Shown here one piece after another: positions 501 through 53,744 of a stretch of 64,000 nt of DNA. The translations under genes were made by a program, and so were the position numbers. The DNA is from Neocallimastix sp. 'constans'. Taxonomy: Eukaryota. A model generated the notes under the pieces. It made no database searches. It was given only the letters and a program-made list of their open reading frames with translations, and was not told the origin of the DNA. Numbering within the stretch: position 1 is the first letter of the stretch; each line of letters begins with the position of its first letter. Location: the NCBI GenBank assembly GCA_050613775.1, contig JBODTK010000156.1, positions 62,001 through 126,000 on the forward strand. The letters run 5' to 3'.

Positions 501-1363
501 TTTACTAAATTGTACTTTCCTATATTCTTCATAACCTAAACCTCATTGTAAATTTAATTTATTTTGATATAAATTAATTTACACTTGTAAATAATGTAAA
601 TAAATTTTAATTAATTACTTTATTGTTATATTATTAAATATATGTATATATTAAAATACAATTGTAAATATTAAAATTATACTTTTAAGATACTAAATTA
701 TTAAAACTATTAATTAAATATTATTATAAAAATTTATTTATTATAACTATTAAATATTATTATAAAATTATTAAGATTATTAATTAAATTTATTATTAAA
801 AATTATTATTAAAAATTTTTACTTATTATAAAAATTATTATTTAAATATTATCAAATTTATTAATTAAATATTATAAAAATTTTATTTTATTTTGAAAAT
901 AATTACAAGTATTATTTAAAATAATTAAAGATTATTAAATTTATTATATTAATCTTTAAAAACAATTTATTTAACTTAAAAATATCAAAGAAAATAGTAA
1001 AAACTATTTTTTATATATTTATTTTATAATTATTTTTAATTAAATTATATTTGAATATTATATTATTATATTTATAAAAATTAAAACAAAAATGAATTAT
1101 TGATATAAAATTAATTCAATAATTCTCTAAAATTACTTAAATTATAAACAATTAATTATACTTTAAATTTATAAAAAAATATAAATATTGTAACAATTTC
1201 TTAAAAATTAAATGTGTGTACTTTAAATAATAAACTTTTATATTAATAAAAAAAATAAGTAACTTTTAATAAAGAATTATTTTTTTTTTAAAATCAAAGC
1301 AGGGTAATACCCGTCCCCCCCTGCTTGATTTTAAATATCTAAGTGTCAACCCCGAGTCTACCA
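501..1363. mobile_element. LTR-like repeat W1 (interrupted)
   Basis: Close copy of 39617-40594 and inverted copy of 5898-6924; ends CCCCGAGTCTACCA. Confidence 0.85.
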
Positions 1364-1367
1364 GAAA

Positions 1368-1951
1368 TGATAAATAACCAAATTATAAATTAAGAAAAAT
1401 CAATAAAATGGAATAATAACCCTCTTAATTAGTTATTGATAATTATAAAATAATATTTTAATAAAAATAAATTAAAAGATTTAAAATTATTAAATAAATA
1501 TTATTTTAATTTAAAGAACAATGTATTATATATTAAATTATTCTTTTATTTTACTTTAACGATTTTAAATTAAATCTCAGTTTAAATTGATATTAATATT
1601 AATTAAAAAGAAACTTATTAATAATAACAAAATTGTTTATTTTATCTTAAAAGTGTTTACTTAAAATAATTATATAGTTTTATTTTAAATAATTTAAACT
1701 TAAAAGAAAAATATAAAAACATGTAAATATTTCTTTAAAAATAAAGAATCTGAATTCAAGAATTAAAAATTTAAAATTTAAGTTTTAATAAATTATTTTC
1801 TTTTATTCTCATTTATTTTAAATACTTTTTATTAAGAATATAAATATTCAAAATAATAAAAAGTACAATTTTATATTGATAAATAAAGTTTTATTATAAA
1901 AAAAAAACAAATATTCTTTTCTTATTTTAAACTGTAGTGTTTTAATTAACA
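1368..1951 (+). mobile_element. Putative LTR (TGATAAA...TTAACA), with termini like the G2 LTR
   Basis: TG..CA termini resemble the G2 LTR in sense orientation (TGATAAAG...TTAACA); no second copy in the window. Confidence 0.4.
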
Positions 1952-2047
1952 TTTTTGTGTTGATAACTACCCTTTTAATTGACAAATTATTATCACTTTT
2001 AGAAGTAAATTCTAAATTAAGATAATAATCAACATTTGTCAGAAAAA

Positions 2048-2910
2048 TGTAATAATTCTATTAAGAACTAACTCAAAATAGAATTATTAACTACAACTTA
2101 ACGACTAATTCATTAAGTTGAGAAAATAAAATAAAATAAATTTTTTTACCTTTAATGTAGAGTTTATTATAAAATTAATTATAATAATAACACAAAATGT
2201 AAGAGAAGAATTGTTTGTATAAATTGATCTTAAAAATATGTTTTTGAATAAAATATTTTTATTAATTTATTAAAGTTAAAAATATAAAAATGTTACTATT
2301 ATAACTATGTTTTTTATAATAATAACTCTTGATTTCTCAAAGAGAACTCAAGAGCCTTATTTATATTTTTTTATGAAAATAAGGTTAAATAAGAAAGGGT
2401 TTTCTAATCTTAACAAATCTCTTATCTAGGAAAAGATTAGATAGAAAAACCTAGATAAGTTTCCGATCGATATTCTATCCATATCGATCATCGCATTAAT
2501 TAAGTAAAACCGATTACTTCTAAAAAGTAATTGGAAAAAATCTTAATTAACCGATTTTCCAATCTAATCTAATGATCGAAAATAAAAGAATAAAATAATA
2601 AAAGATATTTCGATCATATAATTTATCCTTATATTAAAAATATAAAATTAAATAGTTAATAAAATACAGAATACATTATAAAATACAGAATAGAATACAA
2701 TACAAAATACATTAGTTACAGTAGAGAATTTAACATATTGTAAATATATTATTTAAAATTAATTAAATAAATTTTGTTAAATTAATGAATATTTAAAATT
2801 AAATTAAATAAATTTAATAAATATTATATGTAATTAAATAAAGTTATAGTTATAATAACTTAACTAAGAAAATATAATTATTTGTTAGCAAATAATTATA
2901 GATTCTTACA
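2048..2910 (-). mobile_element. Solo LTR, S family subtype 1
   Basis: TGTAA...TTACA termini flanked by AAAAA; second copy at 38276-38963. Confidence 0.85.
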
Positions 2911-5881: not shown

Positions 5882-5897
5882 TGTAACGAAACTCATA

Positions 5898-6924
5898 TGG
5901 TAGACTCGGGGTTGACACTTAGATATTTAAAATCAAGCAGGGGGGGACGGGTATTACCCTGCTTTGATTTTAAATAAAAAAAATAATTCTTTATTAAAAG
6001 TTATTTATTTTTTTTTTTTAATATAAAATTTTATTATTTTAAAGTACACACATTTAATTTTTAAGAAATTGTTACAATATTTATATTTTTTTATAAATTT
6101 AAAGTATAATTAATTGTTTATAATTTAAGTAATTTTAGAGAATTATTGAATTAATTTTATATCAATAATTCATTTATGTTTTAATTTTTATAAATATAAT
6201 AATATAATATTCAAATATAATTTAATTAAAAATAATTATAAAATAAATATATAAAAAATAGTTTTTACTATTTTCTTTGATATTTTTAAGTTAAATAAAT
6301 TGTTTTTAAAGATTAATATAATAAATTTAATAATCTTTAATTATTTTAAATAATACTTGTAATTATTTTCAAAATAAAATAAAATTTTTATAATATTTAA
6401 TTAATAAATTTGATAATATTTAAATAATAATTTTTACAATAAGTAAAAATTTTTAATAATAATTTTTAATAATAAATTTAATTAATAATCTTAATAATTT
6501 TATAATAATATTTAATAGTTATAATATATAAATTTTTATAATAATATTTAATAATTTTAATAATTTTATAATATTAATAAATATTAATAATTTATAATAA
6601 TTTTTAGAATAATATTTAATTAATAATTTTAATAATTTTATAATAATTTTTATAATAATATTTAATTAATAGTTTTAATAATTTAGTATCTTAAAAGTAT
6701 AATTTTAATATTTACAATTGTATTTTAATATATACATATATTTAATAATATAACAATAAAGTAATTAATTAAAATTTATTTACATTATTTACAAGTTAAA
6801 ATTAATTTATATCAAAATAAATTAAATTTTATTATTAAGTTTAGGTTATCAAGAATATAGGAAAGTACAATTTAGTAAAGAATTATTAATAATAAAATAA
6901 AGGTTATTAATTCATTCTTTACCA
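5898..6924. mobile_element. Solo LTR W2
   Basis: TGGTA...TACCA termini; three copies in the window; GC-rich hairpin AAAATCAAGCAGGG...CCCTGCTTTGATTTT near one end. Confidence 0.85.
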
Positions 6925-6927
6925 TAA

Positions 6928-7816
6928 TGTAAAGAATTAATTAAAAATATTTAATTATATTAATAATTAATTCTTTCTTATTGTAAAGAATTAATTAAAA
7001 ATATTTAATTATATTAATAATTAATTCTTTCTACAATTAATAATAAAAAATATTATTAATTGAGATAAAATTAAAAAATATAATATAAAAATTGAAAACG
7101 AAAATTTAAAAACTTAGAGTTTATTATAAGATTATAATAAACAACACTAAAAGTAGGTTAAGAGAATTTTAGAAATTATTTTATTATAAAAATTTTTTAT
7201 TTAAAAGTGATTTTAAAATATTTGTGTTAATTATTATAATTTCTTATAATAATAACTCTTGATTATTTTTAGAAGAATCAAGAGTCCTATTTATATTAAT
7301 TTGATTTCTAATCTTGGAAAATTATCTCTATCTAGAAAAAGATTAGAAGAAAAAACTAGATAGATCTCGATTGGTGTTTAATTACATCAATCTTTAGTTA
7401 ATAAGAAAACCCGAATAAGGGAGAAAACTTATTAACTAATTATATATTAATTTTATTAATATTTAATCACAAGTATAATTAAATAATTAATTCTTTTAAT
7501 TATCTTAATTAAAAGTCCAAGAAATAATATAATTTAATTATTTCTTGATTAAATAAAATTATCATTTTAATACAATTTAATTTTTCTTAATTAAATAAAA
7601 TTTAACATTATTTTAATACAATAATACATTATTATAATTTAATATATTAATTATTGATAATTTAATTTAATTTTAAAACAATAACATTAATTAATAATTA
7701 CTATGTGACATAATTAATAAAATTATTCATAAAATTTTATAAAATAATAAACTTTAAATATTAATTTTTTAATAAAGAATAATAATTATTTTGAATAATA
7801 ATTATAATTCTTTACA
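6928..7816 (-). mobile_element. Solo LTR L3 (distant S-family relative)
   Basis: TGTAAAGAATT...AATTCTTTACA inverted termini, CATAA on both sides, S-like palindromic core at 7250-7440, ~54-bp terminal duplication. Confidence 0.8.
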
Positions 7817-7821
7817 CATAA

Positions 7822-8820
7822 TGTAAGAATCTATAATTATTTTTAACAAAATAATTATATTTTCTTAGTTAGGTTATAATTAATATAACTTTTATTTAAC
7901 TCATATTTCATTTATACAATTAATTATAATTAATAATTTATTTAATTATATATTAAAATTTTATTTAGTTTAATATTAAAAATTTATTTAATCAAATAAT
8001 TTTTATACATTTAAAATAATATTAAATTTATTTAATTATTCACTTAATTATTAAATTTATTAGTTTTAGTTTTCTCTCACTTATTAAATCATAAACTAAA
8101 ACACTATTCTGTATTTTATCATGTATTCTGTATTCTATCATGTATTCTGTATTGTATTAATCATGTATTTTATTATTAATGTATTGTTTTATATTTTTTA
8201 TGTAAAGTTCTATAAAATAGAACTAAATAGATTAAATTTTAAATTTTATGATCGAAATAATTTTCATTATTTTATTCTTTTATTTTCGATCATTATATTA
8301 GATTAAGTAATCGGTTAATTAAGGTTTTTCCAATTACTTCTTAAAAGTAATCGGTTTTACTTAATTAACACGATGATCGATATGGATAGAATATCGATCA
8401 AAAAACTTATCTAGGTTTTTCTTCTAGTCTTTTCCTAGATAAGAGATTTGTTAAGATTAGAACCCCTTTTGATTTTAACCTTATTTTGACAAAAAAGTAT
8501 AAATAAGGCTCTTGAGTTCTCTTTGAGAAATCAAGAGTTATTATTATAACAATTATTATATAATAATAATAACAATAAGTTTTAACATTTAAAATTTTTA
8601 ATAAATAATAAAACAAATTATTTTAATAAATCAAATTTTATAATTAAAACTTTTCCTTATCAATTTTAGTGTTTCGTCTATTATAATTCGTTATAATAAA
8701 CTCGATAATTAGAAAGAACCATAGGTAAGTATGATTCTTTTCTAAACCTTTAATATTAGCAGTTAGAGCTAATATTAATGATTAATAATTTAATTATAAT
8801 TTTTTAATTAAATTATTACA
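7822..8820 (+). mobile_element. Solo LTR, S family subtype 2
   Basis: TGTAA...TTACA with TSD CATAA; near-identical to 40602-41580 and 58008-58827; TATAAATA at ~8498. Confidence 0.9.
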
Positions 8821-9817
8821 CATAATGTTAAGGTTCGGAGAGAGGGAAAAATAAAAAATAAGTATTAATATAAACAACAAAAAAAATAAACAAACAAGAA
8901 AATTAATAAACAAAATAAATTTTTGTTTTATAAATCCTTTATTAAAATTTTATTTAAAAATTACAATATTAAATTACAATATAAAAAATACAATTTTTTT
9001 ACTGTTATTTATATTTTTTTTTCTTAAAATAATAGAAATGGTAAAGCCATTTCTTTGTATAATAAAAATTAATTATTAAATATTTTATATTAAATTTTTA
9101 TTATTAATATAATTATTCTTTAACTTATAATAAATAATACTTATATATTAATCTATTACTAATTATTTATTACTAATCTACTTAATTATATATTTTAAAA
9201 GACAAATTTTTTATTTTACAGAAATTAATTCTGTGGTTTAGTAATATTTATTTAATCCTAAAGTTTAATTTTACTAAGTTTAGAAAAATAATATTATTTA
9301 AATTATTAATATAAAATTTATAATCATTTCATCAAATTTATAATATAATATTTATAATAAAACATATAATAATAATATAATTATTTCCTTTTATGTTTAA
9401 TCTTTTATTAGTAATCATTAATACAATTTTTTTTTAATTTGGAATTTTCCAAAGAAATAATTGATATTGATAAGTTTAATATTAATAAAAGAAATATTGA
9501 TAAGATTTTGATAAACTATAAAGAAAATTGATAAAATAAACTATATAATATTGATAAGGATTTTAATAATAATAAAATATAGATAAGAATAATAAAGGTA
9601 GCATAGATAAGGAATTAATATTAAATATACTTTTTTAAATAGTATAATTTAATTTGTACTAATTAGGAATATAGATTAATTTATTAGAATATAGAAAGTT
9701 CCAAAAGAATAAAGAATCAAATAATTTGTTTAAGGGTTAAATGAATCATTTAAGATGCATAACCAAAAGAACATTATTTGGGCATTCTTTATCAAGATGC
9801 CCCCACTAAGACTCAAG

Positions 9818-12800
9818 CTATACAGAAGCTGAGTTAAACTTTACTATATTCTTTAAATGGACATTGCGGTTCATTTGGATTCCAGATTTAGGGTCCACAA
9901 GAGTTACCGTATTGAATTGTTTCTTTAATACTTGAAGGGGTCCAACAAAATATGGTTCAAGTTTGGTTCTAGAAAAATTTCGGACTAAGACTAAGTCTCC
10001 AGGCCTAATATTTTTAGCTTGATTCATGCTGTTCTTGCTTTCTCTTCTATTGGCCCAATATTTATTCGCATTTTTCACATTTGCAGCGGCTTCTGTTGTC
10101 CATAAGTAGTGGTTAACAAACTTTTCGAGTAAGATCTCATCAGATGACTTGTTTATTCCTATAGTAGGTCTTGCAGCGATATCGAAAGGTTGCTGGTCTT
10201 CTCTTCCATATACCAGCTCGAAACTTGAATGATTAGTGACAGAATTCTTGGTAGTACGAAGGGCCCATAAAGCAGAAGGTAGTACTTCATCCCATTCCTT
10301 GTGCTTTTCACTTAGAAGTCGAAGTAATTTTCCTATCTCTTTGTTTCTATTCTCTGTGAGTCCATTAGTTTCAGGGTGATAAGTGGTACTAAATTTCACG
10401 TATACATCATAGAGATCGAGGAATATCTTGGTCATATCGGAAGTAAATTGGACACCATTGTCCGTAGTAATCACTTGAGGTACTCCATGGCGTGCAAAAA
10501 CATTGATAAGGAATTTTATAACTTCTTTAGAGGTTACGTTTTCTGTAGGTTCGGCTTCAACCCACTTGGTGAAATAATCGACTACCACCATAATATATTG
10601 ATTGTTGTTGGAAGTTTTCTCTAAAGGTCCAATTATATCAAGACCAAGGTGAGTAAAGGGTCCTTCCACTTCAGTTGGAATATCTTCTGTTGGTTTTGGA
10701 TATGGTTGAGGTTTATTCAATTGGCACTTTTCACATTTAGCTATAATCCTCTTAATGTCGTTTACCATACCATTCCAGTAATAGCTTTTCCTAAGTCGTT
10801 GATAAGTCTTGTGATAACCTTCATGACCGATTTGGTGGGCTTCTAGAATTAGCTTTAATTTTTCGTTAAGATCAGTAACTAATTTTCGGTAGATATTTCC
10901 ATCTATGAAATATTCAACACCATCGATTATAGTAAACTTTTCTTCAATAAATTCTTTTACTACTTTAGATAAAAGAGATTCGTCGACTTCTTTTGTAATT
11001 TTGGTAACTAATACCTTCTTGTCAGTGTCATTCTTCATTCTTGATAGGGCATCTGCAATAACATTCTTTTTACCTGATTCATAGCAGATTTCAACCCCCA
11101 AAAGGTTAGCAGCCATGCACCATCTAGTTTGTCTAGCATTTGTTGGTTCTTTCTTGTTGAACAGTCCGACTAAGGGTTTATGGTCTGTATATATAATAGT
11201 TTTATGAGGATTTCCCATTATATATGATTTGAATTTAGTTAAGCAGTAGAATAAGGCTGTTCCTTCTAAATCAGTTATTCCGTAATTTTTCTCACTTTTG
11301 GTTAGTGTTCGACTCGTATAATGAATTGGGTGTTCTTTGTTAGTTTCTTCATTCTTTTGTAGTAGTACACCACCTACTCCATCATAGGACGCATCAGTTC
11401 TTATAATAAACTCTTTATTGAAAGAAGGGAATTTTAGAATTGGGGCATTCATTAATTTTTCCTTAAGCATTTTAAAGCTTTTCTCTTGTTCATCTTTCCA
11501 TTGGTACTTAACACCTTTTCGCAATAACTTACAAAGAGGAGCTGTGATCTGTGCATATTTATCGATAAAAGTTCTGTAGTATCCAATTGCTCCTAAGAAG
11601 GATCGTAATTCATGGAGATCAGTAGGTGCTATCCATTTTTTAATAGCTTCTATTTTGCTATCCAGAGGACTTAAGCCTTTGTCAGATACCTTGTGACCTA
11701 GAACTTCTACTTCAGATTGCATGAAAGAACATTTTTCAATGTTGATCTTGAGTTTATGTTCCTTGAATACGTCTAATACTTACTTAATGTGATCGAGATG
11801 TTCTTCAACTGTTTTTGAATAGATCAAAATATCGTCAATGAAGTTAAAAACAAATTCACCAATGTAAGGAAAGAGAATCTTATTCATTTCTCTTTGGAAG
11901 GTAGCAGGAGCTCCAGTTAATCCGAAAGGCATTACCTTGAATTGGTAATTACCAAACTTAGTAGTAAAACTGGTTACTTCAACGCTTTCTTCATCCATTA
12001 GTATTTGATGGTAACCAGAATAGAGATCCATTGTAGTAAAAATTTTGGCTCCATCTAAGCTATCGAAAATTTCATCAATATTTGACAAAGAGTAAGAGTC
12101 TTTAATGGTAACATCATTTACTTTTCGGTAGTCGATACACATTCTCCACTTTCCATTATGTTTAGGAACTAAAACTACTGGGGAGGATCACTCTGAATAC
12201 GACGGTTCAATTAGTTTCTTATTGATCAATTTGGTAAGTTCTTCTTTTAGAATATCAGATTTATATTTGGTTACTCTATAATATTTCTGTTTAATTGGTT
12301 TTACACCAGGTTTTAATCTAATTTTATGTGGTGATAAGTCAGAAGGAGTTAATTCTTCAGATGAGGTGGCTATAATTACTAAATAATCCTCAAGCAGTTG
12401 TATAATTTGTTCTCTGAACATTTTATTAAGGGTGTCAGTGAACTTTTTGTTATGAATATATTCTTTAGGAGGTAAACCTTCTATTTTCTTAAGATCGTTG
12501 TTGTTTTCATCAGGTATTGCTTTTAATACACACATTAATTTTTCTTCTTCATCATAAGTGTTGTTAATTGGAGCTATCACATCAATAAGTCCATTATTAT
12601 TCATATAACAGAGACTATACAATGTTGGATGGATAAATAATTTATAATCTACTAAAGTTTTTAAATTAATAAGAATATCATAGAACGGGTCTTCTTTATC
12701 AACTACTCTGCATTTAGCTATCATTTCAAAGTTATTAATTTTTAAGGGAATTTGGACAATGTAATCTTCTGAGTATTCTTCATTTTGGGTAGCTAATCGA

Positions 12801-13815
12801 ATTCTACCGCAACTAACATCGATAGGTTCATAAGTTGTAGGAAGTTTATCCAAAAATTGCTGTGTTACAATATTAAGGTTACTACAGGAGTCCATTAAAG
12901 CTTTTCCTTTTACTCCATCTACCTCAACGTCTACCATTGCGATATCATCTTCATTAGGTTCTATATTCTTACTCTTATATGTATGATCAATATTATTTAC
13001 TAAGATAGTCGTAGCACAAACATTGTTTACAGCACCAGAAATTTTTGTTTGGTCTTTTTCAAATTTTAAGCCTTGTATGACTTTGGTCTTTACTTTTGGA
13101 GACACATCTAGTAGTTGGGCTAAGATAATATTACATTTGATGTTATTCAGATCTTCAATAACATCATAAGGTTTTTGATTCGCAATCATTTGAAGAATTC
13201 TTGGTACTCTTGCAGTTTTGGTTATAGAAGATTTATTATTAATTTTATCATTCACCAATTTTGTTAAAGTTTGTTCTGTTGTATTATCAGGAGTATTATT
13301 TGAATATCAATAATATTATTAGTTTCTGATTTGTCAATTTCAATAGTTTTAACTTGTCTTTTTGAAGTATTAGCTCGTTCTTTATCACGTAGCTCTTTTT
13401 CTTTTTCTTTTTCCTTATTAATTAAAGGTTGAGTAAGTATTGATGGGTGAATCTGACTCCGAGTTGATTTTTGCTTTGGGTTTTCCATTAGTTCATTTTC
13501 TTTTTTCTTTCTTAATGCAGGTGTTGCAATTGGTCTAGGGTTATCTTTAAGACTTCGATGTATTTTCTTTCCTGGACTAGATTCTAGTTTGTCATCTTTT
13601 TTTCGTTTAATTGCAGCGCATAAATAACTTTCATTTTCTTCTAAGTCAGATTTACTTACTTTTTCAGTATGAAATTCTTCTTCATTTTCTGATTCTGATT
13701 CCATACTTATTACTTCTTGAAGGTGATTTTGTTGTGGTTCTTCTAAGGTTGATTGAAATTTGACTGAAGCAATTTTATTGACGATGGGAGTGCTTCTTCT
13801 CCCTTTTAGTGATTT
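9818..13815 (-). pseudogene. G2 pol (PR-RT-RNase H-integrase), broken by a frameshift near 13260 and stops at 12188 and 11780
   Basis: PR MDSCS; RT YQFKVMPFGL and FIDD; RNase H TDAS; integrase HHCC, GLDIIGP, TDNGVQF and YFVGPL. Confidence 0.95.
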
Positions 13816-13821
13816 AAATTT
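13766..13821 (-). promoter_or_regulatory. -1 ribosomal frameshift signal (slippery heptamers plus H-type pseudoknot)
   Basis: A_AAU_UUA and U_UUA_AAU in the gag frame, 8-nt spacer, stems GGGAG/CUCCC and GAAGCA/UGCUUC; the -1 frame is open into pol. Confidence 0.8.
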
Positions 13822-14792
13822 TTATTTTCGAAATATTCTTGGCGATTTTTATCAACAATCGCTTTAAGCTTAGGACAGTTATTCTGATAATGACCTTTTT
13901 CCGTACAGAAGAAACATGTACTAATAGTTAAGTTTTTCATTCGTTTTGTTAGATCTTCAACATCTGAATCTTTTACTGGCTTCCTTGGTTCTGAGAAAGA
14001 TTTCTGTTTAAATTTCTTTTTATTAAAATTGGAGGGCTTATTATAGTGAGGATAAGTATTTTCGTCTGAATCATAAGCAATTTTAGGAATAAGTCTATCT
14101 ACTTTTTCCGCTATTTCAAAGGCTTTATTGAGAGAAATATTATCCTTAAGGGAAACTCTTTTCCATGCCTCTTTATTATTTTGTAATGAGTCGGCATAGT
14201 CTAATACACTAATTCGTTTTCTTCTTTTAATATCCAACTTGTGGTAAAGAGTTCGGTAGCGTATATTAAAATCTTTCACTTTTTCGTTCCTTTTAATTTT
14301 AAGTGCACGAAGTTCTCTGAGTAGAACATTTTGATCTTCTTTTAGGCCATAGAATTTTTCTAATTCGTCCACAATTTTGTCTAAACTTGGGAAATTATGA
14401 ATATTGTCATCACCGATGTTATTATCTTCGTCATTATCATCATCACTAAAGATATTATCATTTTCCATATCTTGGATGATTTCTCTTATTTCACCGGTAG
14501 AAGTCAAAATACAAGCTATAAATATTGTTTCTGGATCAACCACTTGCTGATATCTGATCCATAATTTTAGTTCAGAGGCCCAGGATTTTATATCTAAGTT
14601 GTCTTTACTAAGTTTTTCTATTCCCTTAAGTTCCTTCTTTAAGTCTTTAAAATTAATTCGACTATTATTTATAGCTACTGGACTGGGAATAGAGGGTGAT
14701 GCACTAGACGAGCCACCACTATCAGAAGAAGAGTTTTCCGACATGTTTGAATTTATTGAAAGAAGTAGTAATGAATCAAGTAGAGTATACAA
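13806..14792 (-). CDS. G2 Gag with CCHC zinc knuckle (likely start MSENSS at 14744)
   Basis: CFFCTEKGHYQNNC; lies upstream of pol. Confidence 0.9.
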   Translation of the reverse strand: MYTLLDSLLLLSINSNMSENSSSDSGGSSSASPSIPSPVAINNSRINFKDLKKELKGIEKLSKDNLDIKSWASELKLWIRYQQVVDPETIFIACILTSTGEIREIIQDMENDNIFSDDDNDEDNNIGDDNIHNFPSLDKIVDELEKFYGLKEDQNVLLRELRALKIKRNEKVKDFNIRYRTLYHKLDIKRRKRISVLDYADSLQNNKEAWKRVSLKDNISLNKAFEIAEKVDRLIPKIAYDSDENTYPHYNKPSNFNKKKFKQKSFSEPRKPVKDSDVEDLTKRMKNLTISTCFFCTEKGHYQNNCPKLKAIVDKNRQEYFENKNLNH

Positions 14793-15121
14793 GGTTAATA
14801 GTTATATTAAAAAAAATATTTTTGTGTTACCAGGTAATAAAGATTTGATTAATAACCTCAATGTATTTTTCTTGAGTAGTAGAGTTTTATTTTTTTATAA
14901 TAAATTAGCCAAAAGTTATCAATTTAATTATTTTGAATAAGTAGTAAACAATGGATTCAACAACCAAATAAATTTAAGATATAAACTAGCGTCAACTTGA
15001 CCACCAAATATATCAATTCGTAGAATAGTTAAGCTCGAATTCCCCTTCGACCCACTTAACGATGAAAATATATTAATAATTTACTAGTTGAGCTCGAATT
15101 CCTCTTCGACCCACTCAACAG

Positions 15122-15164
<43 letters not shown>

Positions 15165-15579
15165 TTGAATTTACTTAAATTTATTTTTTTTTATTTAGAA
15201 GCTTATTTTTATAAAAAAAAAAATTAATTTAATATTGTTATTATCAAGTTGAATTACCGACCAAGTTATATTATAAACTACTAGCTTATGGGTCTTTCGT
15301 CCGATAATATTCATTCCGTCACCTTATTCACGTGATCTATGTTCCGTCACACGCTTCAGGATCTTAATATTACCCCTACTATCCCCCTCTTGACAGCTAG
15401 TAAGGCTTGTTTATGCTGAATATAACTTGTTTAATTCAATCTTGATAAGAAAAGAATATTTCAATTATCAATATTAAATTAAACAAAGTAGCTTCCTCAA
15501 ATGTTCTTTTTCAATTCTATTTAAAATTTTTGGATATTTATTAGAATAAAAATATTATTAATATTATTATTTGTATTAT

Positions 15580-16179
15580 TGTAACGAATCTTAAAAAATT
15601 AGAAATTAGAATGCTGGCATAGTGGTTAGTCACTATGACCTCAGCCTGAACCACTAGGGTTCGACTCACACCTTTACTAAAATTTTATATCATTTAAATT
15701 TTAAAGAATTTTTATACTTCATTTCTGTATTTGTTTCTGTATTTGTTTCTGTATAAATTTCTGAAAAAATTAACAAAAGAAATTCTTAGAAATTAATAGA
15801 AACAAATCAGATAGAAATTCTATTTTAATTTATCTTTTATCATTATTTCTTTTAGATTCTTTTTAACCGAAAATAATCAATTTTTACGAAACTTTTTAAT
15901 GATTTTATGGTTTTAAATTTTTATGGATTTAAATTTTGAAAAACTATAAATAGGAGTGAATTTCGCAGCCAAAAGATTCTAAAAATTGTGTTTTTATTAA
16001 TTATTAAATTAATTAATAAGTAATTCGAAATATTACAATAATTAATCTTTATAATTAATATTTTTAAATTTCTTAATTAATAAAACTATATTTTAAAAAA
16101 CCAAATTACTTATTAATCAAAAAGTGCTTACCTATTGTGTTACACTCTTTAAAACACGGATATTCCAATATTCGTTACA
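15580..16179 (+). mobile_element. Solo LTR T2 (T family, with Pol III A/B boxes), in the G2 leader
   Basis: TGTAACGAA...TTCGTTACA, TSD ATTAT, A box TGGCATAGTGG at 15615, B box GGTTCGACTC at 15658, CTATAAATAGG at ~15945. Confidence 0.9.
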
Positions 16180-16709
16180 ATTATAAAAAAAAATTTTTTT
16201 TTTTTTTTTATTTATTACTCTAAAAAAAAGTTAAAATTTAAATTATAAAATACTTAAAAAAAAATTAAATTTTATCATTAATTAATTATTTCTTGAACAA
16301 CGGCATTTCCGGAAATTTTCCGTACTTAAAACAGAACGTAGAGTGGTAGTATGTAAGTCAACCCAGCTCGCCTATTACGGCTTCATGTGGTGCTTACACC
16401 AGGCGCTTCTGCTTACTATTAAACAGAACGACCAGAGCTTAAGAATAATTGTCACTACAATTAATTCTTAAGAGTAATTAACCCGAAAACCCTCTACTTC
16501 TTGAGTTCTGAGATAAGTACGCTTCTAAATCGTACTAACTCCAATGCCCAAGAAAAATAAAAAAAAAAGATAAAATTTAAAATTTATTCGAAGCTTCACG
16601 GATAATATAAATTATCTAACACTTCGAAATATAAAAAAAAAAATTGTTTTTTTAAGAAAATTATATTTATTTTAATATTATTTATATTATCTTATTTTTA
16701 ATTTTATTC

Positions 16710-16727
16710 TCCCCGATATCTCCACCA
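16710..16727 (-). promoter_or_regulatory. G2 primer-binding site, complementary to a tRNA-Ala-like 3' end
   Basis: TGGTGGAGATATCGGGGA, 7 nt inside the 5' LTR; eukaryotic tRNA-Ala typically ends ...UCUCCACCA. Confidence 0.8.
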
Positions 16728-17661
16728 AATTTTATGTTAAGGTTCGGAGAGAGGGAAAAATAAAAAATAAGTATTAATATAAACAACAAAAAAAATAAAC
16801 AAACAAGAAAATTAATAAACAAAATAAATTTTTGTTTTATAAATCCTTTATTAAAATTTTATTTAAAAATTACAATATTAAATTACAATATAAAAAATAC
16901 AATTTTTTTACTGTTATTTATATTTTTTTTTTTCTTAAAATAATAGAAATGGTAAAGCCATTTCTTTGTATAATAAAAATTAATTATTAAATATTTTATA
17001 TTAAATTTTTATTATTAATATAATTATTCTTTAACTTATAATAAATAATACTTATATATTAATCTATTACTAATTATTTATTACTAATCTACTTAATTAT
17101 ATATTTTAAAAGACAAATTTTTTTATTTTACAGAAGTTAATTCTGTGGTTTAGTAATATTTATTTAATCCTAAAGTTTAATTTTACTAAGTTTAGAAAAA
17201 TAATATTATTTAAATTATTAATATAAAATTTATAATCATTTCATCAAATTTATAATATAATATTTATAATAAAACATATAATAATAATATAATTATTTCC
17301 TTTTATGTTTAATCTTTTATTAGTAATCATTAATACAATTTTTTTTTAATTTGGAATTTTCCAAAGAAATAATTGATATTGATAAGTTTAATATTAATAA
17401 AAGAAATATTGATAAGATTTTGATAAACTATAAAGAAAATTGATAAAATAAACTATATAATATTGATAAGGATTTTAATAATAATAAAATATAGATAAGA
17501 ATAATAAAGGTAGCATAGATAAGGAATTAATATTAAATATACTTTTTTAAATAGTATAATTTAATTTGTACTAATTAGGAATATAGATTAATTTATTAGA
17601 ATATAGAAAGTTCCAAAAGAATAAAGAATCAAATAATTTGTTTAAGGGTTAAATGAATCAT

Positions 17662-18227
17662 TGTTAAGATAATAACTGAATTTCAATTCAATTTCAATTT
17701 CGATAATTCAGTTATTTGAATTTCAATATTAATAAATAATAATAATATAATAATTATTATTAAATTAACTTTATTAAAATATTTAGGAATTAGTCTAGGC
17801 CAACTAATTACTAAATATTATTAACATATTGAATTTAATATATATTAAATAATGTAAACACGTGATTGTCATTAAATTAATTTCTACATATTATATTTTA
17901 ATTATAAAATATAATATTTAGCAATATTTGATTCTTATATTTTATTTATATTAAATATTTATATTATTATCTAACTTTATATTATCAATATCAAACTTAT
18001 ATTAATATTATTTACATATTCATATTAATAATTAATATTTTAATAATTAATTATTTTATATAAATACATGTTTAAATTCTTTGATTAATCCTTTGTAGGA
18101 TTATTGTAATTTAAATTATAGTAATAATTATATAAAATAATAATAATAAAATTTAATTATTAATAAATTACTATAATTTGGCATCTTGACCTAATCGTTA
18201 AGACCAAATTATCTAAAAACTTTGACA
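17662..18227. mobile_element. Solo LTR Z1 inside the G2 5' LTR
   Basis: TGTT...GACA, TSD ATCAT; absent from the other G2 LTR; homolog at 50304-50953. Confidence 0.9.
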
Positions 18228-18837
18228 ATCATTTAAGATGCATAACCAAAAGAACATTATTTAGGCATTCTTTATCGATAATTAGTAAATTAGTAACTAC
18301 GGTTCAATTGTAAGTTACCATAACCATCGGGTTGAACCCTTAGGGTTCGACACCCACTCTTTCCAAATTTTAATAACTTTTTATTTATTATAACTAGAAT
18401 ATTAAAGAAATTACTAGTGTTTATCGGTTAAACAATTGAACCGATAAAACTAGAAAAATCTATTTTATTAATATTTTTTATCATTTTTTATCTAAGATTC
18501 ATTTTCTAGAAAGAAAACTTGTTTTCTTTAATTTTCTTTAATTTTCTTTTATTTCTAATAATTACTAATAACAACTGATAACTTAAAATAATTAATTTTC
18601 CTGAAAAACTATAAATAGGTGTAAAATTTCATAATAAAATATTTTTACTTGTGCTTTTATTAATTACTTTTAAAGTAATTTAAAATATTACAATGATTAA
18701 TTAATAAAATAATAATTTATATTTTTACTAATAAAAAAACTTATTTTAATAAAACATATTTTGAATTACTTTAGTGTCGAGAACCTTTTGTGTAAAAAAC
18801 CTTATAACAATCTTAAGTAACATTAAGATTTGTTACA

Positions 18838-20373: not shown

Positions 20374-23240
20374 ATGGAAGAAGATACCTTTTTAAATGCC
20401 AGTGCTACCAATAAAGATGGATTCGCTGGAGATCGTCGTTACTTGATCCCGAACGATTTAATAATGACCCAATAAAGGTTGTGTATATCATTTCTAGACT
20501 CTACGGCTCTGCAATGAACTGGGCTGCTACTTTAATTGAAAATAACGATCCATGTTTAAATAACTATCAACAATTCACCTCAAGATTTAAAGATACTTTT
20601 GGGAGCTACGATTCGACTTTCATTGCTAACCAGAAATTGAAGACAATTAAACAAAGACGCATCGGTGAAATAACAAACTATATTCTCGAATTCAATAGAT
20701 ATTCTGACGAATCTTCATGGAATGAAGAAGCTAAAATGGATGCTTTCCTCAATGGACTTAATGACCAAATTGCTACCAAAATATATGAAATGTTTCCAGG
20801 ACCAAGATCTCTTTTCGCATTACAAACTATTGCCTCTAGACTAGATAGTCGTATTCGTATTGCTGCGCATAGACAATTTTCTAATCCACAAAACAGATCA
20901 AATAATAATAATAATAATGATAACAGAAATAATAACAGAAACAATAATAATAGAAGACAAAATAAAGGGGAAAAGCCTTTCAAATTCAATACCCGAGGTC
21001 CTTTGTCTAATGAAGAAAAGGAAAGAAGAAGAAAAGAACATCTTTGTGCCTATTGTGGATCAGCTAACCATTCCCTTGACCATTGCCCACTAGTAAACAG
21101 AAATAAAGCCTCTTCAAGCAGTTCTCATATCACTAATCTTGAACCTAAAACCATTCCAAGAATAAGAATTTCTGATCAACCCGATGTAAAGCTACCAATT
21201 TTTGAATTCTCTCTTAATGTTTCCAATATTTCTACAAAAACTAAAATTCTTCTGGACTGCGGCTCTCAACTTAATTTAATGGATGTATACTTCGCAAAAG
21301 AAAACAATATTCCTTACTCTAGTGAATGTAATCTCCCTAATGTATCTGGAATCGGCGGTATTCAGTCAATCATAGGTAAAACTGCACCAATATCCTTAAA
21401 ATATAAAAACCACATATGTAAAACAAGTTTCTATGTTGTTGACCTTCCTTCGTATTGTGCTATTTTAGGCATTGACTGGCTAGAAACTCATAATCCCACT
21501 ATAGACTTTGCCTCAAAAGAACTCTCTTTCAAATCCAACTATTGTATTTCCAATTGTCTTGTACTTCCCAGCGCCTTCACTACTTATGTTCCTTTAAATA
21601 CTATTAAAAAGAATGATAAAGAAGAAGAAGATAAAGAAAGTAATAAAGTAAATAAATCATTACCAAAGAAATTACTTCCATTTAAGGATATTTTTAGCGA
21701 AATATATGCGAATGCACTTTCTCCAAGACCTGATTATACATCAAATGAAGAAGAACTGTCCTCTGACATTCCTTTCAACGTCTTAAAACCTGAAAATTTT
21801 TGCGCTACCACTTCCATTGCCTCTTTAAATGATCAAATACTCCATGAATATAAGAATGATAAATATTATAATGAAATCTGCAAAAAACTCAACTCTAAAC
21901 AAGACTTCCCAGAATCTAATAAATTTTCTTTAAGTAACAACTTCTTACTCTTTGATGGAAAAATTTATGTTCCCCTTAACTGTCGTTCTTCCGTATTAAA
22001 TATCTGTCATGACTCCCCATCTGCTGGTCATTTTGGTTTCAAGAAAACTTTCTCCTTAATCAATCATGACTTTTGGTGGTCATCTATGCAAAAAGATATT
22101 AAAGACTATATTAAATCTTGTGAAATCTGTTGTCGTTCAAAGGATTCTAGACACAAACCTTATGGATTTCTGAACCCCCTAGAAATTCCTGACCGACCTT
22201 GGACTTCGCTTTCCATGGATTTCATCACTGATCTCCCTTCATCTAATGGATATACTTGTATTTTTGTTGTTCTCGATAGATTCACAAAAATGGGTCACTT
22301 CATCCCATTTCCTAACGTTCCTTCTTCTGAAGATACTGCTAAGGCATTCATGACTCATATTTTCAGACTTCATGGATTACCAAATGAAATTCTTTCCGAT
22401 AGAGGTACTCAATTCACTTCTAAATTCTGGACTTCTATTTGCAAAACTCTCAATATCTCAATGAAACTTTCTTCTCCCTTTCACCATCAAACTAACGGTT
22501 TAACGGAGAGGGTGAACTCCGTTGTAGAACAATTTCTCAGATGTTACTCTAATTTTAAAGGTTCAAATTGGCATAATTATCTATTCCTTGCTGAATTCTG
22601 CTACAACAATTCTATTCAAGAATCATTAAATAAATCACCTTTCTACGCAAATTATGGTTACAACCTTCGCTTCTCACCAGCTGTGCCAAGTTCTATTGAT
22701 GTTCCGGGTGCTGAAGAATTTACAACAAACTTAGCGAAACTTTTCAAACAATTAAAAGAAAATTTAAAACAAGCAAGAAATAAACAAGAAAAATTCGCCA
22801 ACCAACACAGAATTAAAGCACCTGAATTCAAAGTAAACGACAAAGTTTGGATAAACAGTTCACTCATATTAAGAAATAAAAATAAAAAATTAAAACCAAG
22901 AAAGTTAGGACCTTATAAAATAATTGAAAAAGTCTCTCCAGTAACATACAAAATTGATTTTCCAAAAAATATAAGAATACACCCAATTATTCATGTATCA
23001 GAACTTGAGCCATACTATAAAGACAATTTTAAAAGAAAAAAGGAACCTCCACCTCCAATTATAGTTAATGATGAAGAAGAATATGATGTAGAAGAAATAC
23101 TTGATAAAAGAAAACATTATGGAAAGATTCAATATCTTATTAAGTGGAAAGGATATCCTTTATCTGAAGCATCTTGGGAACCGGAAGAAAACCTCAACTG
23201 TCCAGAAATACTCAAAAAATTTTATAAATCAAACAAATAA
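20374..23240 (+). pseudogene. T1 gag-PR-integrase-chromodomain with an in-frame deletion of RT/RNase H and a frameshift near the gag start
   Basis: [39 protein letters not shown], chromodomain YDVEEILD...YLIKWKGY...SWEP; no YxDD. ATG 20374 (MEEDTF..FAGDRRY) is out of frame with the 20481 ORF. Confidence 0.9.
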
Positions 23241-24476
23241 ACTTATATTTAGAAAATGAATCTATAATATTAATTATACAAAAATTTATATTTATTAATA
23301 TCAAATTTATTTCTATTAATATCAATATCAATAATCTTTATTATTTTTACTTATTAATATAAATATTATTTAAATTCATGTAACCTTATTATTAATAATG
23401 TATTTTTATGTTTATCATGTATTGAAATTTTACACCAAATAACTATCAAAATAATTTATATATTAAAATAATTAAATAAAATTTTCTTAGTATAGTTTAG
23501 CCTAGCTTTGAGATTCGTCTGGTATCCGAATCCTAGAGGAGGACCATGTTGTAAAATATTTAATAATTTGAATACGTATTTAAATGTAATGTAATGTAAA
23601 TTATTGTGGATAAAAATGTTTTCCAAATTTTTAATATAAATTTAAATGTATTCCAAATTATTAATTTAATTAATTTTCTCAAAAATGTATGACTAAATTA
23701 TTTGGAGAATTTACATCATTATTACTCACTTTGAATCATGAAACTTGTAAATTAAAAATAATTAGTCATGAAACTTGTAAATTAAAAATAATTAGTCATA
23801 AATTAGTTAAATTAAAGTAATCAAAGAAAAATTGCCTTTTCCGTTTGTTTACAAAAACTTGCCGTTTTGTTTATTTGTTTTTAGAAATATTAGATAGTTT
23901 TAAATAGTTTTTATATTAAAATAACTCATAAAAATTCATGTAATTTATTATTAAATGTAATTACAAATATATAATAATATTTTAGTTAGTTTATTACAAT
24001 CTATTCAATTTAAATTTTAATTTTCAAAAAGTATAAAAAGAGTTAATTTTCAACTATTGAACGATAGTTGGAAAATAGTATAGAAAATAGTATAGTTTAG
24101 AATAGTATAGTTTAGTATAGATAATATAGATAGTATAAATTTTATATTTTATTAATTAGTATTATAACTATTATTAGAATAGTTATCTTTTATAAAACAA
24201 ATTTTATTTTAAATTTTATTTTAAAATCTTAACTGCTAGTAGGCTTTCCGGTAAAGGACCCTACGGTACCCAGTTAAGTGATTGTTGATTTTAGAATAGT
24301 TAAATTCAACAAATAAGAAATATTAATAAAAGGATTTTTTTATAAAACAAAAAATTAAATTAGTTTTTTAGTTTTAGTGTTTTAGTTAATAATTAATTAT
24401 AGTGTTGATATAATAAAATAGTGTAAAATAAATTATAGTCTGTCCTCGCCGACCTAAGCTATTATTTTATTTTACA

Positions 24477-24487
24477 ATTTTCCAACT
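24477..24487 (+). promoter_or_regulatory. Self-priming PBS of G3
   Basis: ATTTTCCAACT is complementary to AGTTGGAAAAT (24066-24076), about 34 bp after TATAAAA. Confidence 0.85.
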
Positions 24488-24629
24488 CGTTAGATTAGTA
24501 TAGTTTACCTTTGTGTAGGATAGACTAGTAATAGTATAAAAATTTTTTTTTTTTTGAAATAATAATTAAAAAGTGGATTTAGTAATACTTTATAGTTTAA
24601 TTTATAGTTTAATAAATAATAATAATAAG

Positions 24630-27600
24630 ATGAATTACATAAATATCAACAATCAACATCCAGGAGCTAGGGGAGACTTTGACGCAGCCTCTGAAGCCAG
24701 CTCCATGGAAATAGAAAATGAGGTTGGTAATAACGTCAATACCAGGGCACGCCTCATTCCGAAACCAAAAGCATTCTCCGGAAGAAGAAACGAACTACCA
24801 GCCTTCCTTGGTCAAATCAACCGATATTTTAAGTACAATTTAGACGAAGAAGCTGCTGCTGATGACGAATTCAAGATTGATATTATAAGTAGTTATTTGG
24901 AGGGAAACGCTGCTGAATGGTTTGCTGATCTAGTTAAAGAAGAAAGTCCACTATTGGAAAATTACGAGAATTTTATTGACGCTTTGCAACAACGTTACAA
25001 ATCCTGTGCAAGTTCAGATGTCGCGAACAGTCGACTTACCAAGATACGTAGCCAACAATTTAGAACAATAGCCGAATACTGCAATCAGTTCGAGAAAATA
25101 GCCAGAGATTCATCATTTAATGACGAAGCTAAAATCCATTTTTTCATTGAGGGTTTACCAACAAGAGAAAAAGAAAGAACCAAACTAATTTATCCTAGAA
25201 TTAGAAGAATTAATGAACTAATTAATGTTGTAGCTGCTAATGCTGAAGAAGATCGTCGTGTTAACGGAAATGACCCAATGGATATAGATCAAAGAAGAAT
25301 TAGACCTTTTCGTAGGGATTTAGGATCAAGTCGTTACCAAAATAATTACCGAAGTAGCCAAAATTACAGGGATTCTTCACCAAAGAGGTCAACCAAACCG
25401 AAGAAGTGTTTTATATGTAAGAGCACAAGCAACTTAAAGGAAAACTGTCCCAAGCAACAGGACAAAATTAGAAAAAGAGAAAAGATCTTACAGATTAAAT
25501 TGAGCAAGAAAAGTTTAGCTCACACTTACAATGTTGTTTTTAAGTACAAAAATGGTTTTATTATGTCCGCAATTCTAGATACTGGCTCAGATCTTAATAT
25601 TATGGATAGAGCTACCGCCGATAAATACCAGATCCCAATACAACGAATCCGCCATGAGAAAAACGTTATCGGATTTAACGGAAATGGAACAATTCGTTAT
25701 GAAACCATTCCATTAACTATGGTCATGGGTCAACATATCGAAACCATTCAATTTTACATTTATAGTTTACCAAAAGGAATTTCGGTTATTTTAGGAAATC
25801 CATGGTTGAAGAAGCATTGCCCAACAATTGAATTTGATAAAGGTAATATCAGATTCAGTTCCCAATACTGCAAGAGGAATTGTTGTGCCACCGCTGAAGA
25901 TATTATGAGAAGAACAACTGAAGAAAAGAAGAAAAAAGATGAAATCCGCCGAAGTAAGATACAATTAGCTAGAGAAATTATTAATAATTATAATAATGTA
26001 TTAGATAGTTTAGATAATAATGATGTTAAAAAATTAGTCGATAATAAAAATAAATTATGTAGTAAAAAATCACGTAATATAAAGGCTATTATGAAAAAAG
26101 CCTTAGTTAAAAAAGAAAAATGTATTAAAAGAAAAGAATTAAATAAAGGAAAATTTGAAAATTATGCTTTCTGTTATGTTTTAAAAAATGAAAATAAAGA
26201 TAAAAGTGTTATTAAATGTGATTATAATAATGAAAGTGTTAAAGAAAATAAAAGTTTGGAAAGAATACCAAAACAATATGAGAAATTTAAAAATGTGTTT
26301 GATGAACAAGAGTGTAACGAATTACCACCACATCGTCCATACGACTGTAAAATTAGATTAAAGGATGATGTTGACTTATTTTATGGTCCTTTATATCCAT
26401 TAACGGAGGAAGAACGTGAAGCTTTAAAAGAATATATCAAAGAAAATTTAGAAAAAGGCTTCATTAGACCTTCAACATCTCCTGCTGGTGCTCCAATTTT
26501 ATTCGTTAGAAAAAAGGATGGAAGTTTAAGACTTTGTGTCGATTATCGAAGACTTAATGAAAATACTATAAGGGACTCCTATCCACTCCCTTTAATCACC
26601 GAGCTTTTTGACAGATTGAGAGAAGCTAAGTATTTTACTAAGTTAGATTTAAAATCAGCTTATAACCTGGTAAGAATACGTGAAGGTGATGAATATAAAA
26701 CAGCATTTCGAACAAGATATGGTCATTTCGAATATCTTGTTATGCCATTTGGTTTGAAGAATGCTCCAGCAACTTTCCAACACTTTATTAATGACGTTTT
26801 AGGAGAATACTTAGATGAATTTGCTTTTGCCTATATCGATGATATACTTATTTATTCTGAGACATTAGAAGAACACCGTACACATGTTAAGAAAATACTT
26901 AAGAAATTACAAGAAAGTGGTCTTTATGCAAAATTAAGTAAGTGTGAATTTGAAGTCCAGAAAACAACATTCTTGGGGCACGTAATATCCAATCAAGGAA
27001 TTTCCATGGATCCGGATAAAGTTAAGTCTATCTTAGAATGGCCAATACCAACTACAGTCAAAGAAGTACAATCATTTATAGGTTTATGCAACTACTACCG
27101 AAGATTCATCCCAAACTTTGCTAAAATTGCTAAGCCGTTACACAACTTAACAAGAAAAGATATTAAATATGAATGGACTGAAGAATGCTCCGTTGCATTC
27201 GAAACTTTGAAGAAACTTTTTACCATAGAACCTATTCTTGCCCATGCAGATCCAGAATTACCGTTTATAGTAGAGACAGATGCAAGTAATTTTGCAATTG
27301 GTGCCGTATTATCTCAAAGAAATAAGGATACAAATGAGTTACATCCAATTTGTTATTATTCAAGAGGTTTAACAAAATCTGAAAAGAATTATCCAATATA
27401 TGACAAGGAATTATTAGCTGTCAAGTGTGCGTTACAAGAATGGAGACATTACTTAGAAGGGGCTAAGCATCAATTTACAATTTATACCGATCATAAAAAT
27501 TTAACTTTTCCACGTAAACCTGAGTTGTTATCTCAACGTCAAATAAGATGGAACTTATTCTTATCTCGATTTGATTACAAAATACAATATAGACCAGGAA

Positions 27601-29198: not shown

Positions 29199-30160
29199 GT
29201 CGCTCAGGGGCTCGACTTAAACAGAGGGGCATGTAAAATATTTAATAATTTGAATACGTATTTAAATGTAATGTAATGTAAATTATTGTGGATAAAAATG
29301 TTTTCCAAATTTTTAATATAAATTTAAATGTATTCCAAATTATTAATTTAATTAATTTTCTCAAAAATGTATGACTAAATTATTTGGAGAATTTACATCA
29401 TTATTACTCACTTTGAATCATGAAACTTGTAAATTAAAAATAATTAGTCATGAAACTTGTAAATTAAAAATAATTAGTCATAAATTAGTTAAATTAAAGT
29501 AATCAAAGAAAAATTGCCTTTTCCGTTTGTTTACAAAAACTTGCCGTTTTGTTTATTTGTTTTTAGAAATATTAGATAGTTTTAAATAGTTTTTATATTA
29601 AAATAACTCATAAAAATTCATGTAATTTATTATTAAATGTAATTACAAATATATAATAATATTTTAGTTAGTTTATTACAATCTATTCAATTTAAATTTT
29701 AATTTTCAAAAAGTATAAAAAGAGTTAATTTTCAACTATTGAACGATAGTTGGAAAATAGTATAGAAAATAGTATAGTTTAGAATAGTATAGTTTAGTAT
29801 AGATAATATAGATAGTATAAATTTTATATTTTATTAATTAGTATTATAACTATTATTAGAATAGTTATCTTTTATAAAACAAATTTTATTTTAAATTTTA
29901 TTTTAAAATCTTAACTGCTAGTAGGCTTTCCGGTAAAGGACCCTACGGTACCCAGTTAAGTGATTGTTGATTTTAGAATAGTTAAATTCAACAAATAAGA
30001 AATATTAATAAAAGGATTTTTTTATAAAACAAAAAATTAAATTAGTTTTTTAGTTTTAGTGTTTTAGTTAATAATTAATTATAGTGTTGATATAATAAAA
30101 TAGTGTAAAATAAATTATAGTCTGTCCTCGCCGACCTAAGCTATTATTTTATTTTACACA

Positions 30161-32262: not shown

Positions 32263-32411
32263 GTATGTTACTATTCATACCTAAATTCTTATAGTTATTG
32301 TTATTATATTCATTGCTATCATAAATACCATTAATAAAATAATTATTTAAATCATAATTAATATTATTTTCTTTTTGAAAAATATTTGTGTTTTCTGTTT
32401 TATTCGGTGTG

Positions 32412-39615: not shown

Positions 39616-39616
39616 T

Positions 39617-40594: not shown

Positions 40595-40601
40595 AACTGA
40601 A

Positions 40602-41580: not shown

Positions 41581-41587
41581 CTGAATG

Positions 41588-47593: not shown

Positions 47594-47734
47594 GGTATAA
47601 ATATAGAACTGCTTACAATTGGGTTCCTTCAGACGAAGTTGAAAATAACCCCCGAAATCAAAATATTTATTTACAATATTTACAAAATGATTTCAATAGC
47701 TTATAACTAAAATGATAATAATAATAATAATATT

Positions 47735-47773
<39 letters not shown>

Positions 47774-53676: not shown

Positions 53677-53744
<68 letters not shown>

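Follow-up and report, generated by a model that had tools for sequence, protein, structure and literature searches.

The 64-kb window (the whole stretch of DNA analysed) contains a retrotransposon, T1 (5882-30733), whose 5' LTR start and far end share the target-site duplication (TSD) GATAA. The host is probably an anaerobic gut fungus. The T1 5' LTR is interrupted after 16 bp and picks up again at 18278. The initial annotation described a stack of four elements in this gap, and this stack is real, with coordinates that hold. Positions with a minus sign below are counted from the start of box A, one of two promoter boxes in the LTR:

5882..5897, plus strand: opening 16 bp of the T1 5' LTR, identical to 30161-30176
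5898..6924, minus strand: W2, solo LTR placed in the G group by its termini, 97.7% identical to a copy ending at 40594
6928..7816: L3, solo LTR, distant member of the S group, exact TSD CATAA
7822..8820: S2, solo LTR of the S group, exact TSD CATAA, 98.4% identical to a copy at 40602
8826..18277, minus strand: G2, full-length Ty3/gypsy element without a chromodomain, with reverse transcriptase (RT), RNase H and integrase (Pfam), 4-bp TSD ATAA
15580..16179, plus strand: Tb, uninterrupted solo T-type LTR inside G2, with box A (15615) and box B, TSD ATTAT
17662..18227: Z1, solo LTR of the Y/Z family in the G2 5' LTR, TSD ATCAT at 18228-18232 (-72..-68)
18278..18837, plus strand: remainder of the T1 5' LTR, box A at 18300, box B at 18344
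20415..23240, plus strand: T1 open reading frame, with gag, protease, integrase and chromodomain (Pfam)
23550..30158, plus strand: U, intact chromovirus with identical LTRs, at -37..-33 from box A of the T1 3' LTR
30161..30733, plus strand: intact T1 3' LTR, CATAA at 30173-30177, box A at 30196, box B at 30240

T is a chromovirus, with gypsy domain order and Pfam matches to Chromo (E 1e-15) and SH3_Tf2-1 (E 1e-17). The T1 open reading frame encodes 941 aa and has lost RT and RNase H by an in-frame deletion corresponding to residues 458-881 of P0002; its RT-bearing relatives reach 88% identity. The LTR is 574 bp long, and further inside the 5' LTR remainder lie a TATA-like motif and a self-priming complement. 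The bases after the 5' LTR match the element's own LTR rather than a tRNA primer-binding site: the first ten complement LTR position 387, 41 bp after TATAAATA, which we take to be Tf1-type self-priming.

Near its start, the T LTR carries boxes A and B spaced as in tRNA genes (43-44 bp apart in 5/5 measured heads), with box A 35 bp from the LTR start and a run of T 23-33 bp beyond box B in T-type heads. Identity among heads is 68-73% in the box region vs 52-56% across the next 150 bp, although for the metagenome loci the search pattern included box B and the later half of box A, so that conservation there is by construction. The two-box pattern at tRNA spacing matched three times in the window, vs a mean of 0.0 in 200 block shuffles, with a pattern selected after the motifs had been seen. 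ARAGORN and Rfam found no tRNA genes in the 64-kb window and none in four metagenome loci; the T-type unit is not a tRNA gene. Six of the eight substitutions between paired LTRs fall in 70 of 1,544 columns around this promoter and are not mostly C>T. Transcription-linked mutation is described at tRNA genes in the available text of PMC6130373, and would give such a cluster. The two substitutions previously noted in box A of the stacked copy were confirmed, at 18300 and 18309, as was the CATAA 19-23 bp ahead of box A (-23..-19) in the intact 3' LTR.

The junctions of the first stack needed some revision. W2 (sense start TGGTAAAGAATG, vs TGATAAAGAATG in G) had been given the flanks CATA and (CA)TAA; the exact match on both sides is TA only, and we infer a 4-bp target, CATA, from which one CA has since been lost. 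W was also considered as a DNA transposon that duplicates TA, a reading rejected since its ends resemble the G LTR and the copy in a second stack has a 4-bp TSD. L3 is 66-67% identical to S2 and to another S-group copy, S', over 300-440 bp and lies in the opposite orientation to S2. G2 is broken by three stops in the pol frame and a frameshift, is 99.4% identical to the intact P0076, and has two LTRs differing by three substitutions. Its junction had been read as GATAA; a 4-bp ATAA with an A>G change at the last base of the LTR is better, because two further G-group inserts carry exact 4-bp TSDs and the G end is followed by A in contigs from three runs. The four inserts thus share a common zone at -23..-19 rather than one single 5-bp duplication.

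Misassembly of this stack is unlikely. At the G2/T junction, the one of the stack's four that the read-derived check covered, an 84-bp contig of run X1 aligns to 18249-18330 without a single difference, with just 29 letters on the G side (below the 31-letter bridging threshold) and X1 possibly being the source sample. Among the loose contig ends listed there, T heads run on with an intact start and G ends are a mixed consensus.

A second stack, overlooked in the initial annotation, lies in another T-type LTR of the same window:

37656-50264, minus strand: Tc, T-type LTR cut after 16 bp, box A starting at 38249, TSD AATAG
38270..40594, plus strand: X/W, G-group LTR sequence, either a single compound insert or two, 4-bp TSD at -20..-17
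38276..38963: V2, S-group solo LTR within the opening 6 bp of X, TSD at -26..-22
40602..41580: S3, S-group solo LTR, TSD at -23..-19 of the Tc head
41586..50248, plus strand: X', G-group solo LTR with S' and Y nested inside, 4-bp TSD TGAA at -23..-20
41588..42531: S', S-group solo LTR 2 bp inside X', TSD at -25..-21
42586..49357, plus strand: Y, gypsy element 47-51 bp into X'
50304..50953: Z2, Y/Z solo LTR 35-39 bp outside the Tc start, TSD AGTAT

Emptied of inserts, the Tc head rebuilds to 35 bp, the same as in T3, Tb and the metagenome heads L007 and L038, the last of which is 99% identical to Tb. Five inserts lie at -26..-17, in target letters unlike those of the first stack. The "one 5-bp site" of the initial annotation is better described as a 10-bp window, in which some elements make 4-bp and others 5-bp cuts. 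Two S copies that had been described as lying at unrelated sites, at 40602 and 41588, are both within this second stack. X' is 67.6% identical to the G LTR over 888 bp. The Y/Z family sits farther out, near -70: Y would lie at -74..-70 if it inserted while X' abutted the Tc head, and Z2 at the same position if it inserted before the Tc stack formed. The integrase tail of Y is of SH3 type; a chromodomain in Y is unsupported (3-5 bits across all frames).

Across the window, 9/13 inserts of the G and S groups fall in T-head zones, compared with 0/12 inserts of other families (Fisher p 5e-4, with inserts that are not independent and a window picked post hoc). The nine TSDs all lie inside -26..-17 and comprise seven distinct sequences. 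Both stacks are cut after 16 bp, with first-type inserts at -23..-20 in each (the W2 span being inferred). The TSDs of V2 and S' are built partly from the end of the preceding insert, which fixes the order of insertion and shows that distance was kept rather than sequence. The same arrangement occurs in another sample: in the metagenome contig L016, a G-type 5' LTR bearing G's primer site abuts a T-type head 24 bp ahead of box A. The 5' end faces box A in 5/5 G-group inserts at T heads (W2, G2, X/W, X' and L016). The S group is represented by solo or truncated LTRs in 7/7 copies. Reuse of the T-type head at a specific position is therefore well supported, and more strongly than originally claimed, as later inserts hold their distance to box A though the target letters have changed. 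Two of four heads in the window and three of four in the metagenome have no insert at this position.

The other four G/S inserts (W501, G'', V1 and an S copy at 58008) share one site in a copia linker; a copia homologue search found no relative above 54%. Three of them form a third stack:

501..2910: W, G'' and V1 at the copia linker, TSDs GAAA and AAAAA

No A/B pair is in view at this stack within the window; the side on which a box A would be expected runs past the window edge.

Of the metagenome matches to the box pattern, 42/46 were unrelated. The heads in L007, L027 and L038 come after integrase-coding DNA. None of the matches in viral (3) and prokaryotic (14) contigs was similar to the window, and the viral contigs yielded no G relatives and 0 matches to the S end motif. 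Descent of G from Ty3 was considered and rejected: G scores lower to Ty3 (368 bits) than a T relative does (528 bits), and forms its own clade in a tree from which Ty3 itself is absent. This leaves no argument from descent for the targeting by G, which lies no nearer to Ty3 than T does.

We think that the G and S inserts probably reach their site 17-26 bp upstream of box A through the boxes themselves. Boxes A and B of the T head would recruit TFIIIC and TFIIIB, and incoming G and S integrases would be tethered to this complex at the predicted transcription start; polymerase III, TFIIIB and TFIIIC are proposed as the tether from geometry only. Each fresh insert would spare the internal promoter, leaving the site reusable and extending the stack away from box A. 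For its own transcription T would rely on a polymerase II promoter located ~310 bp past box A, and it would prime itself, so the boxes would serve T in some other way, perhaps as a chromatin barrier.

Sap1 guides Tf1 in fission yeast, and a different DNA-binding protein could similarly anchor on the conserved T head, for example on its TAGTAAA-TTAG motif, with the boxes as bystanders. This motif sits between every insertion site and box A, and in its strict form occurs in only three T/Tc heads, those with an insert within 40 bp; the copia-site stack, which lacks visible boxes, also favours such a protein. However, the motif is missing at the copia site in the window too, the insert distance fits the geometry of a polymerase III start, and the box region is the best-conserved part of the head, and we consider this anchor unlikely. 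We are more doubtful still that the integrases simply favour LTR ends or bendable AT-rich junctions, with inserts attracting inserts and the promoter uninvolved. All inserts do lie 0-16 bp from the end of one LTR or another, and no box is visible at the third stack, but over this 0-16 bp spread the distance to box A is constant within 10 bp. V2 and S', whose order is fixed by nesting, inserted on the box-A side, and the ends of the R, Q and U LTRs and the T 3' ends in the window carry no G or S insert. Sequence-specific cutting at CATAA, chance or misassembly is hardly credible: CATAA is reused in the first stack, but it is present 107 times on the plus strand, L016 has other letters, and the second stack, also with other letters, already largely refutes this explanation. 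TSDs are also exact at nearly all junctions, one of them spanned without difference by the read-derived contig.

Beyond the tethering to the polymerase III machinery that we favour, a broader scenario can be offered tentatively. Gut-fungal chromoviruses may have taken a tRNA promoter as a portable chromatin barrier suited to life in heterochromatin. This promoter then would have become a self-amplifying target on which three or more unrelated LTR groups converged, two of them at the start site and one near -70. As part of the same scenario, transposons rather than tRNA genes would supply most polymerase III landing sites in gut-fungal genomes, and the pad would shut once transcription-driven mutation destroys box A. 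The usual explanation for polymerase III targeting is that it keeps elements away from genes in compact genomes (PMC5006619). In the present case the target would be mobile and the surroundings rich in repeats, in the genome of an early-diverging fungus, which would alter the argument for why such targeting evolves. If true, this would also reveal new, apparently independent integrase targeting modules, account for the growth of nested transposon clusters in gut-fungal genomes and provide a case of a coding LTR element with a tRNA-type promoter. A fixed, reused integration window may also aid genetic tools for gut fungi.

Both halves of this arrangement, tRNA-like LTRs and polymerase III targeting, are already known separately; our literature search found no paper combining them. 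The available text of PMC10886601 describes a tRNA-like (or 5S) promoter in the LTRs of Helenus/TRIMp3 and Cassandra, with conserved boxes and no functional tRNA, and reports no other elements targeting these LTRs. T shares the tRNA-like box A and box B within the LTR. However, Helenus/TRIMp3 elements are non-coding and under about 1.3 kb; Helenus as described there measures 311-1263 bp and has tRNA primer sites, with fungal cases from rusts and some agarics. The LTR of T is 574 bp long, with a TATA-like motif and a site for self-priming, and belongs to a coding chromovirus with a 941-aa open reading frame.

On the targeting side, the dictyostelid elements TRE5-A and NLTR-B hit a single tRNA gene repeatedly, which leaves tandems of elements there, and they also target A/B boxes that lie outside any tRNA context (PMC5391098). 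The second site near -70 is reminiscent of their insertion windows, 40-64 bp upstream, but these are non-LTR elements, and their targets other than tRNA genes are located on the rDNA palindrome rather than on a mobile element. Skipper-2, a chromovirus with a diverged chromodomain, has shifted to tRNA-gene targets (PMC5006619); Y resembles it in its SH3-type integrase tail and position near -70, although Skipper-2 inserts downstream of tRNA genes. Ty3 TSDs end within 20 bp of the mature tRNA start, with a preferred start near -13 (PMC6673722), which would convert to about -20 from box A. The narrow, fixed-distance window of Ty3-like targeting was found here for G and S (9/13, plus L016 at -24), and in Ty3, DGLT-A and TRE5 targeting, too, the distance is constant while the target sequence varies. 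Compared with Ty3 (S. cerevisiae), Tj1 (S. japonicus) and DGLT-A (Dictyostelium), G has 4-bp TSDs, a single orientation and its own clade, the host region is repeat-rich rather than gene-dense, and the target is a motif within the LTR of another retrotransposon.

The stretch (21.6% G+C) consists almost entirely of LTR elements with gypsy and copia ORFs (Pfam), and both the T and the copia ORFs have relatives that include Orpsp1 gene models. A host gene with introns at 52550-54560 (minus strand) resembles S-adenosylmethionine synthetase, as judged by eye; at 31942-32319, units of ~36 bp form a tandem array within a minus-strand ORF of 290 aa.

T is a chromovirus with tRNA-type boxes A and B in its LTR, which was present in 20 sequencing runs (14 of them feces metagenomes). 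Together with the Orpsp1 relatives, this makes an anaerobic gut fungus the likely host. In all five heads measured (LTR start up to the boxes), box A lies 43-44 bp from box B, and a run of at least four Ts follows 23-33 bp past box B. Three matches to the box pattern lie in the window, where 200 shuffles gave 0.0 on average; the fourth T-type head, which does not match, is the mutated one. The motif is not a tRNA gene in the window or at the four metagenome loci checked. T shares 68-73% identity with the other T-type LTRs, Tb and Tc, in the box region, vs 52-56% in the following 150 bp. Metagenomes gave 46 pattern matches, four of them similar to the window; L007, L027 and L038 are uninterrupted 3' LTRs downstream of T-type integrase DNA, with box A 34-35 bp from the LTR start.

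RT and RNase H are missing in frame from the T copy T1, whose 941-aa ORF (20415-23240) is open despite this loss. Relatives up to 88% identical carry both domains, so the T family is probably autonomous; no RT was seen on one contig with a box-bearing LTR. The RT-less domain set is shared by P0012 (995 aa, 63%), and such derivatives may recur. The bases following the T 5' LTR are complementary to the T LTR, 41 bp past TATAAATA. We take this to be self-priming of the Tf1 type from a polymerase II promoter, and hence T's main promoter is probably not formed by the boxes.

Insertions upstream of box A (negative positions) form two stacks, involving LTR elements of a G group (G2, W, X and related copies) and an S group (S2, S3, S', L3, V):

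5882-30733: T1, TSD GATAA
Within the T1 5' LTR, minus strand: G2, full-length gypsy element, 99.4% identity to an intact protein
37656-50264, minus strand: Tc, T-related LTR, TSD AATAG
In Tc, -23 to -20: X'
In Tc, -25 to -21: S'
In Tc, -23 to -19: S3
In Tc, -20 to -17: X/W
In Tc, -26 to -22: V2

The initial annotation described four elements stacked on one 5-bp site in the T1 5' LTR. The stack is real: this LTR, in an element with its own TSD, is interrupted after 16 bp, its remainder starting at 18278, and exact CATAA duplications flank L3 and S2 (both at -23 to -19). A single shared 5-bp site holds for these two but not throughout. The G2 duplication is an exact ATAA (-22 to -19) provided that the last base of G2 changed from A to G, a reading we adopt because A follows the G end in contigs of runs X1, X8 and X13 and because the TSDs of X' and X/W are exact and 4 bp long. 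Only TA matches on both flanks of W2, where we infer a CATA duplication (-23 to -20) that has since lost one CA. The G2/T junction is spanned without differences by one 84-bp X1 contig that misses the bridging rule by two letters and may derive from the source sample of the window.

Tc, whose stack is absent from that annotation, is likewise interrupted after 16 bp (reconstructed head 35 bp). S' lies 2 bp inside X' and V2 within the initial 6 bp of X, which makes S' and V2 the later arrivals. Both took the box-A side, cutting letters donated by the prior insert, and position is therefore separable from sequence. The internal region of Tc appears to be deleted; its terminus (37656-37687) comprises an LTR end, 10 primer-site bases and a second short LTR end. 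At metagenome locus L016, a G-type 5' LTR with the G primer site abuts a T-type head at -24 from box A, the far junction lying beyond the contig and the TSD unseen. This primer site, also found at 16710-16734, starts TGGTGGAG, which presumably fits the tRNA-Ala 3' end. A G+C-rich hairpin lies near the 3' end of the W LTRs (5931-5970 and the remaining copies).

Within the window, 9/13 G- and S-group inserts but 0/12 from other families fall at -26 to -17 of a visible box A (Fisher p 5e-4), with X/W entered once, G'' placed weakly in G, inserts within a stack not independent, and N1, M1 and copia elements omitted for lack of clean TSDs or ends. More cautiously, two non-discovery LTRs were both struck in a 10-bp interval of 575 bp (~3e-4); L016 was found through its boxes, so its insert had to lie near them. 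The position specificity first proposed for T1 recurs in Tc and L016. Neither Tb nor the T 3' LTR carries an insert at -26 to -17, though another element, U, lies at -37 to -33 of the latter's box A. The remaining four G/S inserts count against box-A targeting: they share one copia-linker position, which exists in two copies, and no A/B pair is visible there (one copy's expected side is off the window, the other's S LTR truncated). At 2910 and 58008, distinct S-group LTRs (V, S) adjoin two copia copies (96.5% identical to each other) at the very same nucleotide. Beside the truncated S LTR, two near-perfect hairpins stand side by side (58845-58960), with an Rfam mir-3910 match far under threshold.

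A second distance, near -70, has one direct case, the element Z1 (-72 to -68 in the present arrangement); the related Y and Z2 would lie at -74 to -70, given an assumed insertion order. A Z copy at the left edge of the window sits 46-50 bp inside W, and three of the four Y/Z cases could instead reflect a preferred spot within G-group LTRs.

Inserts at T heads keep a fixed distance to box A while the target letters change and the site is reused. Insertion at T heads is likely to proceed through TFIIIC and TFIIIB: TFIIIC would bind the boxes and load TFIIIB upstream, whatever sequence lies there, and integrases would be tethered at the start site. The internal promoter would outlive every insertion, so that tandems accumulate. 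Indirect support for past transcription comes from a cluster of substitutions around the promoter: of the eight that distinguish paired LTRs of T and G, six fall at 18263-18332 (70 of 1,544 columns; p ~2e-7, for an interval picked post hoc). Two of the six lie within box A, and the matching X1 contig covers five; X8 and X13 contigs have intact letters at 18309 and 18332. At tRNA loci, mutation runs 7-10 times faster with transcription (PMC6130373). Local repair at the junction is an alternative.

LTR elements in anaerobic fungi are reportedly covered by a 2024 survey. In literature searches judged mostly from listings and reaching few subscription journals, no paper turned up that deals with chromovirus LTRs carrying A/B boxes, with box-bearing LTRs as insertion targets or with integration targeting in gut fungi. 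Helenus genomes, listed in the supplements of PMC10886601, could bear on distribution. The stacked landing pad on T LTRs is real and replicated; its parts are known and the combination is new.

Box A is taken here as tRNA position 8. Among our comparison papers (PMC5911963, PMC6673722, PMC5006619, PMC5391098), PMC6673722 has Ty3 TSDs ending at most 20 bp from the mature tRNA start, with a preferred start near -13, which with that offset gives ~-20 from box A. G forms a separate clade (support 100/100; 15 of 43 tree rows) and scores below a T relative against Ty3, so targeting of the Ty3 kind by G, if any, would be convergent. Tandems build up likewise in TRE5-A (PMC5391098).
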